Part shown: positions 1-888 of the stretch, piece after piece | Numbering within the stretch: position 1 is the stretch's first letter | Layout: each line of letters opens with the position of its first letter | Origin: Escherichia coli | GTDB taxonomy: Bacteria > Pseudomonadota > Gammaproteobacteria > Enterobacterales > Enterobacteriaceae | DNA length: 1,307 nucleotides | Reading direction: 5' to 3' (one strand) | NCBI RefSeq assembly: GCF_003334815.1 | Contig: NZ_QOWO01000101.1 | Made by a program: the position numbers and the translations under genes | Notes under the pieces: model-generated | The model's input: the letters and a program-made list of their open reading frames with translations, nothing else | Told to the model about the DNA's origin: nothing | Databases searched by the model: none

Positions 1-50
1 GACCCGCCGCAACGACGAAGAGCGCGTGCGCGAAACGGCGTTGCCCCTCA

Positions 51-76
51 CATCCCGGCGGCCTTTTGCCGGGATG
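51..76. other. GC-rich stem-loop (9-bp stem, 8-nt loop)
   Basis: CATCCCGGC (51-59) pairs with GCCGGGATG (68-76); loop GGCCTTTT. A second small hairpin GCGACCG-GAA-CGGTCGC lies at 111-127. Confidence 0.6.
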
Positions 77-290
77 CCGGGAGCGCAGGTCACGGCGCGA
101 CAGAGGCGGCGCGACCGGAACGGTCGCTGCAAGCCCGGGGTTTCGCGTCAGGGATGGAAGCCCGCCAGGGCGGAGACAGCTCCGCTGGCTCCGTTCACGA
201 CAGCCCGCCCCGCCAGGGGGACGCCCGGAAAAGGCATAAGCAGGAGAACAACAAAACAGACAGTAATCAGAGCAGCAGAAAAAAGAAGAA

Positions 291-353
291 CAGTAGCAGT
301 AGCAGTAGCAGTAGCAGTAGCAGTAGCAGTAGCAGTAGCAGTAGCAGTAGCAG
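291..353. repeat. perfect hexanucleotide tandem repeat (AGTAGC)x10, written CAGTAG x10 + CAG; simple-sequence repeat / VNTR-type tract
   Basis: Ten uninterrupted copies of a 6-bp unit at 292-351, with a partial copy on each side, read directly from the sequence. Imperfect AGC/AGA/AAG triplets precede it (271-290). It produces the poly-Ser, (Ala-Val)n, (Ala-Thr)n and poly-Leu runs seen in four ORF-track translations. Confidence 0.97.
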
Positions 354-425
354 GAACAACAACATCAGTAACAAACAAATGACAGGTCTGAAAAGACAGA
401 AGCCCACAGCAGAACGTCCGCGTAA

Positions 426-459
426 TGAAAGGGGCGGCGCGTCAGCGCGGCCCCTTTCA
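426..459. other. GC-rich stem-loop (10 bp + G.G mismatch + 4 bp stem, 4-nt loop)
   Basis: TGAAAGGGGC (426-435) pairs with GCCCCTTTCA (450-459); inner GCGC (437-440) pairs with GCGC (445-448); loop GTCA. Pairing checked base by base. No clean U-tract follows. Confidence 0.7.
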
Positions 460-605
460 GCGCCACCGGCGCGCGGTCTTTTCCCGGCGCGGGCAGACAG
501 GCATTTATCCTCCCGCCTGCCCGGCGTCTTCAGGCCCGCAGACGAATAATCATCATCGGAACACGTGTATAAGCAAACATGCCGCTCGACAGCTCCCCCG
601 GGAAT

Positions 606-637
606 GCAGAAGACGCCAGCAACGTCTTCTGCTGGCG
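606..637. terminator. terminator-like hairpin made of two overlapping, mutually exclusive palindromes; possibly bidirectional
   Basis: GCAGAAGACG (606-615) pairs with CGTCTTCTGC (623-632), 10-bp stem and 7-nt loop. Alternatively CGCCAGCA (614-621) pairs with TGCTGGCG (630-637). On the plus strand it is followed by TGATTTGTT (T-rich); on the minus strand it lies 9 nt past the stop of the 646..888 ORF and is followed by a pyrimidine-rich UCUUCUGCAUU. Neither U-tract is canonical. Confidence 0.35.
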
Positions 638-645
638 TGATTTGT

Positions 646-888
646 TCAGACCTCTGTCGAGCCGATCCATATACCATTCAGATAAGCATCAAATGCATCG
701 TTCCCCTCCTGCACTTCCTGCGGCTGAACAAGGTTCAGGCTTTCGTGTGTCCAGCCGGCTTCAGGTGCAGACACTTTCAGCAGAAGATGCCCATCAGAAT
801 CACGAATCTCCAGATCAGCAAACGTGTTCCCGGTCAGGATATCTGGTTCACCGGGTCGTTGATCTGTAACATATGTGATATATCCCAT
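646..888 (-). CDS. small acidic hypothetical protein, 80 aa
   Basis: Minus-strand ORF: ATG at 886-888 (complement), TGA stop at 646-648. A GGAG Shine-Dalgarno (plus 896-899, complement) lies 7 nt upstream of the ATG. Protein: MGYITYVTDQRPGEPDILTGNTFADLEIRDSDGHLLLKVSAPEAGWTHESLNLVQPQEVQEGNDAFDAYLNGIWIGSTEV, with 14 Asp/Glu against 3 Arg/Lys. The ORF track extends it to a GTG at 916-918, and an in-frame ATG at 901-903 is also possible, but neither has an RBS. A palindromic hairpin begins 9 nt past the stop. The overlapping plus-strand ORFs (565..906, 579..869) are Cys/Arg-rich and lack an RBS, so the minus frame is preferred. No family recognised. Confidence 0.5.
   Translation of the reverse strand: MGYITYVTDQRPGEPDILTGNTFADLEIRDSDGHLLLKVSAPEAGWTHESLNLVQPQEVQEGNDAFDAYLNGIWIGSTEV

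Follow-up and report, generated by a model that had tools for sequence, protein, structure and literature searches.

Stem-loops of the REP/BIME type, located in 3' untranslated regions and between cistrons, protect the upstream mRNA from 3' exonucleases. In 1997 Delver and Belogurov reportedly described CUP (conserved upstream) repeats in the leading region of pKM101, an IncN plasmid, which are said to be units of promoter plus operator. [quoted passage not shown] It is also where the Frpo/ssi class 1 promoters of F and ColIb-P9 are found (Masai and Arai 1997, cited in PMC9849209, PMC11541004 and PMC12672017), with the klcA operon upstream of Frpo2 in F (PMC12672017), as well as ssp2, a stem-loop of F that is reported to stall complementary-strand synthesis (10.64898/2026.01.09.698686). 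Work between 2023 and 2026 has centred on leading-region single-stranded-DNA promoters, and delimiters of such units are undescribed in the literature searched. Here we report on a conserved cluster of hairpins of about 110 nt, called the module, in a 1,307-nt stretch of Escherichia coli DNA (the window; contig NZ_QOWO01000101.1 of assembly GCF_003334815.1). The window is part of the leading region of an IncF plasmid and falls, in annotated relatives, within the interval from oriT/traM to psiB/ssb, with the genes on the - strand, the direction of which is referred to as the gene sense. It seems secure that the module sits at the junction where the end of one leading-region operon meets the intergenic unit in which the next single-stranded-DNA promoter is located.

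Structure and conservation of the hairpin cluster

A sequence-only reading of the window had pointed to a GC-rich interrupted hairpin at 426-459. This was borne out by an inverted-repeat search, which returned arms of 15 nt at 426-440 and 445-459 that are 93% complementary and 4 nt apart, and by folding against shuffled sequences. In this structure, hairpin A, the segment G427-C440 pairs with G445-C458 through 13 pairs with one G436.G449 mismatch, and the loop GTCA (441-444) reads UGAC on the - strand, where the conserved mismatch is C.C instead of G.G. Folded alone, hairpin A reaches -18.8 kcal/mol as + strand DNA (z = -6.2), -29.3 kcal/mol as + strand RNA (z = -6.6) and -26.5 kcal/mol as - strand RNA (z = -5.9). 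On either strand, whether as DNA or as RNA, shuffles that preserve the dinucleotides never did as well (0 of 200; z from -5.8 to -6.6).

Hairpin A is the main stem of the module (Table 1). In the gene sense, hairpin C comes first, starting about 7 nt past the stop codon of a methyltransferase remnant and holding 10 Watson-Crick pairs among its 12. It is followed by an A-run and by P1, hairpin B and hairpin A, the last three of which probably form a three-way junction in the modelled structure. Three of the four P1 pairs are kept in at least 19 of the 21 sequences compared, with single compensatory cases in Hafnia (CAC/GUG) and Erwinia (GGC/GCC); the helix is short and GC-rich, and for this reason its support is weak and we treat it as tentative. 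The A-run at 477-482 contains the one unpaired motif that is invariant in the module (AAA columns), and its complement on the + strand has 4-7 T across homologs, reaching 7 T in Hafnia and in one Citrobacter locus (L034). The near-duplicate CCGGCGCG motifs that had been noticed around this TCTTTT run are present on either side of it, although not as a conserved unit, given that the homologs from Buttiauxella, Erwinia and some Citrobacter lack copy 2. A reading of the pair as iterons was rejected because the second copy is not kept in distant homologs.

Table 1. Positions of the module, its parts and the neighbouring features in the window (strand given where a feature has one)
Feature	Positions	Strand	Description
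3' end of the F ssiD/Frpo fragment	1-48	+	forms the base of the long Frpo hairpin's 3' arm
GC-rich flank of the Frpo repeat	49-235		local hairpins 51-76 and 111-127; three per plasmid
Spacer	236-425		purine-rich on +, pyrimidine-rich on -; includes the (CAGTAG)x10.5 array at 291-353
Whole module	412-529	-	match to covariance model R1, 114.1 bits, E = 1e-23, by construction, since the window sequence is in the training alignment
P1, first strand	418-421		pairs with 473-476; closes the putative three-way junction with A and B
Hairpin A	427-458		lower stem GAAAGGGGC/GCCCCTTTC, non-Watson-Crick G436.G449, upper stem GCGC/GCGC, 4-nt loop
Hairpin B	460-472		GCGCC-ACC-GGCGC, 5-bp GC stem, 3-nt loop
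CCGGCGCG copy 1	466-473	+	loop and 3' arm of hairpin B plus first P1 base
P1, second strand	473-476		pairs with 418-421
TCTTTT run	477-482		T-run on +, GAAAAG-type A-run on -; on + directly 3' of P1 and B
CCGGCGCG copy 2	484-491	+	linker beside hairpin C; kept only in closer homologs
Hairpin C	490-523	-	12 pairs including two G.U, 10-nt loop; complete only on -
3'-end remnant of a class I SAM-dependent methyltransferase gene	530-650	-	stop codon 530-532; called a pseudogene by PGAP in L001

Homologous loci were gathered by a scan of one genome per species and by tblastn searches of plasmids, and loci were added from Enterobacter, Hafnia, Citrobacter, Raoultella, Buttiauxella, Erwinia, Edwardsiella, Salmonella and Erwiniaceae. 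In Klebsiella-type plasmids the methyltransferase has about 60% protein identity to the E. coli type, yet its 3' flank keeps the hairpins of the module while the DNA around the module no longer aligns between the two types. All added loci share the same gene-sense order, with the stop codon followed by C, the A-run, B, A and a conserved CGCG.

Covariation was tested with a structure that we specified (C, the 4-bp P1, B and A) on 21 distinct Enterobacterales sequences. The pair cells are paired in 83.5% of cases, versus 37-54% when the partners are slid by 1-3 columns, and the covariation score is 0.211 versus 0.148 in shuffles, none of 500 of which reaches the observed value. Pairs changed on both sides number 14, compared with a mean of 9.2 in the shuffles (2 of 500 reach 14). 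From the alignment alone, RNAalifold recovers B, A and part of C, with compensatory changes in 9 of its 21 predicted pairs. Compensatory variants of hairpin A occur in Hafnia (AGCGGTGC/GCACCGCT), in Erwinia (ACAGTGC/GCACTGT) and in one Citrobacter (GGTGG/CCACC). Hairpin B, in which 99% of the cells are paired, appears as GGGCC/GGCCC in Erwinia, as GGCCC/GGGCC at a second site in Pantoea and as CCGCC/GGCGG at a second site in Erwinia. The compensatory substitutions for which the sequence-only reading had proposed a search are therefore there to be found, and because the stems are kept through such changes in homologous loci, the module is a selected structure and not a product of chance.

It is highly improbable that the module has no function of its own, in the sense of chance palindromes hitch-hiking with the Frpo repeat or of a part of a + strand open reading frame (ORF; 154-549/425-640). 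The copy in the window does lie inside a duplicated segment, and PGAP annotates hypothetical proteins over the hairpin stretch in many plasmids, including F (L003 7808-8164). Nonetheless, the compensatory changes, a pairing far above that of the slid controls and conservation despite diverged flanks all speak against chance palindromes. The + strand ORFs that cover the GC-rich flank and the hairpins (154-549, 26-382 and 425-640) were rejected as coding, since the longest ORFs differ in frame and in their ends among 12 homologs. Their start codons are likewise unconserved, some are frameshifted in the PGAP annotation, and they are likely spurious. This reading is thus largely refuted by covariation and by the comparison of ORFs.

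A covariance model built from the module alignment (R1) finds every copy that flanks the methyltransferase gene, at 63-115 bits, and gives no match above noise in about 65 distant methyltransferase loci outside Enterobacterales, in other phyla (L022-L087; for L073, E is at least 0.1). Four copies lie outside the training set. The F plasmid copy (L003 7836-7957, i.e., NC_002483.1 57835-57956; 36.6 bits) begins where the last gene of the klcA operon, which encodes 63 aa, has its stop codon, 310 nt before Frpo2. In place of B it has another hairpin, of 7 bp and likewise with the UGAC loop, and the overall layout is kept. The other three are the second-site copies of Pantoea (56 bits; it follows a 119-aa gene), Hafnia (35 bits; immediately past the end of ORF 4-342 at its stop codon) and Erwinia (25 bits), the B variants of which are given above. 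All R1 matches are in gene-sense orientation, and the module starts about 0-60 nt from the stop codon of the last gene of the upstream operon.

In ColIb-P9 (NC_002122.1) the full R1 model gave no significant match. By eye and by folding, related multi-hairpin structures are seen at L097 27549-27690 and 34603-34740, following a klcA-operon gene and ardA, each containing GCGCCTGCGGCGC and each 250-280 nt before an Frpo. They reuse C, the A-run, the UGAC-loop hairpin and the GCGCC-UGC-GGCGC apex, and over its first 70 nt the 27549 site is nearly identical to the F copy. ColIb-P9 carries what are apparently reduced relatives of the module.

In complete E. coli genomes, about half of which have the module, its 111-nt core is found at 3454 plasmid places versus 26 chromosomal ones, with a median of one per positive genome, which makes it a leading-region element and not a dispersed repeat. 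A dispersed extragenic palindrome (REP/BIME-like) was rejected on the same numbers, and the additional genome-wide copies expected of a repeat element are not seen as a dispersed family. Of the earlier proposal of a structured RNA or a repeat-element remnant, the structured part stands, as the stems covary, and the copy does lie in an intra-plasmid duplication of about 640 bp, which in this sense makes it a remnant of a repeat; the dispersed repeat element does not stand. A scan against Rfam 15 at a permissive E-value gave mir-6827 as the best overlapping match (18 bits versus a gathering score of 80, E = 1.9). All nine matches listed lie far under their own gathering scores, at the level of chance, in line with the earlier failure to match a named element.

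The operon boundary, the Frpo promoters and the strand that folds

Positions 302-349 of ssiD (sequence from supplementary file 4 of PMC11541004) match positions 2-48 of the window on the + strand. The remainder of the Frpo promoter lies to the left of the window, and folding of L002 7690-8060 shows the long Frpo hairpin with 1-48 in its base. From this match and this fold we infer that it is the + strand that is transferred and that serves the leading genes as template, in agreement with PMC11541004 and PMC9849209. Hairpin A lies about 380 nt past the end of the published Frpo fragment and, in the gene sense, directly downstream of the methyltransferase stop codon. In 16 loci, the distance from the module to the start of an Frpo-like sequence downstream is 277-403 nt.

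The exact motif of hairpin B, GCGCC-NNN-GGCGC, occurs three times in L002 (17 kb; chance 0.05), once upstream of each Frpo copy, including the one that follows hok. It occurs once in the F locus (18 kb; chance 0.01), 328 nt before Frpo1, as a bare GCGCCTGCGGCGC at L003 13317-13329, between hok/flm and Frpo1. ColIb-P9 (IncI1, 50 kb; chance 0.14) has two, 278 and 251 nt before Frpo3 and Frpo2, which lie shortly past the stop codons of a klcA-operon gene and of ardA, respectively. All six exact motifs in these loci lie upstream of an Frpo; for ColIb-P9 Frpo1, no B motif is found upstream. The layout of the operon in F fits a transcription-unit boundary. The module was also considered as part of the published Frpo itself and rejected, since comparison of ssiD and of ColIb-P9 Frpo1-3 with the window gives matches only at 2-48 and 75-103, with no similarity at 412-529, and the fragment ends at position 48. 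As a promoter of the Frpo class, the module has no promoter-like hexamers, and its stems are of 5-14 bp and almost pure G+C.

Our preferred reading, held tentatively and at somewhat less than an even chance, is that the module acts as an operon-boundary insulator, i.e., as a terminator and/or a stabiliser of the mRNA 3' end. It follows the methyltransferase stop codon despite the divergence of the protein, and it follows other genes in F, Hafnia and Pantoea. The insulation would occur at the RNA level, with the transcripts of the upstream operon ending or being processed at the module. Hairpin A, with its A-tract and U-rich flanks, could act as a weak bidirectional terminator, Rho could load on the pyrimidine-rich tract downstream, where C exceeds G, and hairpin C, fully paired only as sense RNA, would then protect the 3' end of the upstream mRNA. 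In this way, upstream transcription would be kept out of the downstream Frpo hairpin, which would stay folded in the single-stranded phase, and ssb and psiB would be silent once the plasmid is double-stranded.

The stable GC-rich hairpin that an intrinsic terminator needs is provided in the gene sense by hairpin A (-26.5 kcal/mol). Its gene-sense tail in the window, past the GC core, is UUUCAUUA, and a terminator scan did not call hairpin A on the - strand; in most homologs the tails are CU-rich, with 1-6 U in 10 nt. The tract past the module is 65-82% pyrimidine, with a C:G ratio of 1.4-3.5 in at least one 60-nt segment, in most homologs, compared with about 0.5-1.6 in the methyltransferase coding sequence. 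This C-rich, G-poor tract has the make-up of a putative Rho-dependent terminator as far as composition goes.

On the + strand the same scan flagged a terminator-like site formed by 460-472 plus GCGGTCTTTT, a hairpin followed by a T-run. It is improbable, although conceivable, that A, B, P1 and the T-run act together as an intrinsic terminator of + strand transcription, which runs antisense to the leading genes. The T-run, with its 4-7 T, is the only invariant unpaired motif and stands directly after P1 and B on this strand. Such transcription could come from the Frpo hexamers firing towards the window in the duplex plasmid: the transferred strand itself has a -35-like TTGACG within the 5' arm of the Frpo hairpin (L002 7735-7740 region), and in duplex DNA these hexamers would face the window, with the leading genes behind them. 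Against this, a consensus scan found no promoter-like sites on either strand of the window or of L002 7600-8700. Moreover, most homologs have just 4 T, the branched structure is atypical of a terminator, and hairpin C, the wobble pairs of the sense strand and the position after a stop codon would be left unexplained.

Given that Watson-Crick covariation cannot separate the two strands, wobble pairs and mismatches were examined. Hairpin C points to RNA, since its core has 33 G.U versus 1 A.C cells in the gene sense, one of the G.U pairs being kept in 15 of the 21 sequences, and since it is more stable in the gene sense in all 21 homologs, by a mean of 6.5 kcal/mol. For the whole module, the folding energy shows no strand difference.

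Several observations weigh against the RNA-level insulator. The G.U counts in the minimum free energy structures of the whole module favour neither strand, and in 18 of the 21 homologs it is the + strand that gives hairpin A a slightly more stable fold. The conserved mismatch of hairpin A is of weak types in the gene sense (C.C, C.U, U.C, A.C and C.A), and on the transferred DNA strand it is G.G, G.A or G.T, which are more stable in DNA. The run that is conserved best (T4-7) belongs to the opposite, + strand, where P1 and B come right before it. A canonical U-tract 3' of A on the sense strand is absent outside the E. coli type, and the sequences of hairpin B and of the UGAC loop are conserved beyond the needs of a plain terminator. 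The near-constant distance to Frpo suits an Frpo-linked function of the DNA equally well. We could not reconcile the signals from hairpin C, hairpin A and the A-run with folding on a single strand.

As these strand signals conflict, a role of the module as DNA on the transferred single strand, belonging to the Frpo unit, is kept as a rival, one that we regard as possible and yet rather unlikely on the sequence data. The GC hairpins could stall complementary-strand synthesis before it reaches Frpo, prolonging the life of the single-stranded promoter, or the local folds could let the 330-nt Frpo hairpin form correctly by tying up the flanking DNA, or the module could be a priming signal (a primosome assembly site). 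The distance to Frpo stays near-constant whether the module follows the methyltransferase gene, hok/flm, a klcA-operon gene or ardA, and exact B motifs precede all three Frpo copies of L002, F Frpo1 and two of the three Frpo of ColIb-P9. The mismatch of hairpin A on the + strand is of a type that is stable in DNA, the hairpin is more stable on that strand, the spacer, being purine-rich on the + strand, would be unstructured there, and a stall of complementary-strand synthesis has been mapped to the stem of ssp2, another leading-region hairpin (10.64898/2026.01.09.698686). On the other hand, hairpin C has conserved A.C mismatches on the + strand and is the weaker fold there throughout, and ColIb-P9 Frpo1 lacks the motif. 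Frpo works from fragments that do not contain the module (ssiD ends at window position 48; constructs in PMC11541004), and the packing of genes in the same direction makes a position upstream of an Frpo indistinguishable from one downstream of a gene.

A version in which the module is a transferred-strand DNA device coupled to the single-stranded-DNA promoters, either a stall/priming timer for Frpo or a dual terminator, seems doubtful to us. On a single-stranded template, the dual terminator would work through DNA hairpins A and B that re-form behind the RNA polymerase and strip the transcript, while RNA hairpin C would cap it. If true, either form would explain the opposite strand signals within one element.

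The conservation of B and of the UGAC loop also brings in a sequence-specific protein site, on RNA or on single-stranded DNA, at the GCGCC-UGC-GGCGC hairpin and/or at the UGAC loop, to which we give little probability. The stem of B is near-invariant across genera, the same 13-mer recurs in modules of F, R1-type and IncI1 plasmids that differ otherwise, and the UGAC loop is kept where F has another hairpin instead of B. Nonetheless, B tolerates the compensatory stem changes as well as loop changes to GGU, UAC and GUU. The candidate proteins, a ProQ/FinO-type RNA chaperone or a leading-region protein, are not implied by the data.

Plasmid setting and other features of the window

Thousands of plasmids from Escherichia, Klebsiella, Salmonella and Shigella match the window, mostly of conjugative IncF types, and a search of a phage collection with the window gave no matches. 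Within one plasmid, positions 1-296 are present three times and positions 1 to about 640 (1-639/1-651) twice, the second long copy being located between an intact gene for the class I SAM (S-adenosylmethionine)-dependent methyltransferase and ssb. In the window, a - strand ORF at 530-670 covers the methyltransferase remnant. Judged by this remnant, the copy in the window is a duplicate of the intergenic unit between the methyltransferase gene and ssb, and it would have travelled as such together with the Frpo repeat and the remnant of the gene.

The hairpins proposed earlier at 51-76 and 111-127, in the GC-rich flank of the Frpo repeat, are both real according to the inverted-repeat search. 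The one at 111-127 covaries among the Frpo flanks (GCGACC/GGTCGC, GCCTCC/GGAGGC and GCGGCC/GGCCGC), so that this neighbouring GC-rich block has a covarying hairpin as well. In the third copy of L002 the loop of this hairpin is inverted (GGAAC to GTTCC), and the 51-76 hairpin is deleted in L005 and L088.

In the spacer, the (CAGTAG)x10.5 hexamer array at 291-353 is perfect and looks like a slippage-prone variable-number repeat, with about three units in L008 and L009 and more in L001 (where the matching stretch is 39 nt longer). Its in-frame translations, in spurious ORFs, are poly-Ser, poly-Ala-Val or poly-Leu. The methyltransferase remnant contains perfect inverted repeats of 9-10 bp, with arms at 606-615/623-632 and 613-621/630-638. 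The segment 606-638 was called terminator-like on the + strand, with the tail GATTTGTT; in intact copies it would fall within the coding sequence, on its antisense strand. A perfect 11-bp inverted repeat at 1000-1010/1029-1039 (CCCCCTGATTG / CAATCAGGGGG) occupies the gap between two small - strand genes and may be another gene-end hairpin.

In L002, ssiD maps to 7701-8048, 9355-9703 and 14768-15117. Three 207-bp coding sequences annotated as 'single-stranded DNA-binding protein' (7697-7903, 9351-9557 and 14764-14970) lie inside the 5' arms of the Frpo hairpins, immediately to the left of where the window begins, and they are probably annotation artefacts and no genes.

Comparison with described systems

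The element is not described in the papers on Frpo and leading-region promoters that were consulted (PMC9849209, PMC11541004, PMC12672017, PMC3817090 and two bioRxiv preprints). A literature search for a terminator or structured element at this site gave none, older subscription papers on the F/R1/R100 leading region being outside its reach. The module thus appears to be undescribed so far.

With the Frpo/ssi class 1 promoters, the module shares the plasmids, the leading region and the strand logic, as well as a near-constant distance and a history of joint duplication. It differs from them in having no sequence similarity, no -35/-10 hexamers and no hairpin of about 330 nt. ssp2 is alike in being a stable hairpin of the transferred strand in the leading region, and a stall at the module, if true, would likewise delay the downstream Frpo becoming duplex. 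Instead of an insulator, the module could be a device that times the plasmid's conversion to double-stranded DNA. Unlike the module, however, ssp2 is a promoter, and it consists of one long hairpin.

REP/BIME elements resemble the module as GC-rich imperfect palindromes located just past stop codons, and the RNA-specific G.U pairs of hairpin C would suit a role of this type. The module differs in being present about once per plasmid and almost never on chromosomes, and it is not known to resemble the REP consensus. Like the CUP repeats, it is a repeated and conserved non-coding unit between leading-region genes; by their description, those are promoter/operator units of another plasmid group.

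The closest parallel to the preferred reading, an operon-boundary insulator, is with intrinsic terminators, including bidirectional ones. The module has the stable GC-rich stem, the small loop and the location at the end of an operon directly past the stop codon. As in bidirectional terminators, the GAAAG/CUUUC flanks of hairpin A can pair, and a T-run follows the structure on the + strand. It departs from them in that no conserved run of at least 6 U follows the stem on the gene-sense strand, and in that it is a cluster of three hairpins, probably with a three-way junction, in place of a single stem, with stem and loop sequences conserved across genera. We rate it as a structured element of the operon-boundary or terminator-like kind, unusual in its branched and sequence-conserved architecture. 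Each of the boundaries examined in R1/R100-type and F plasmids has a covarying element of this kind, and IncI1 has it in reduced form. The module is a candidate for the missing insulator that would silence the zygotically induced genes in established cells.

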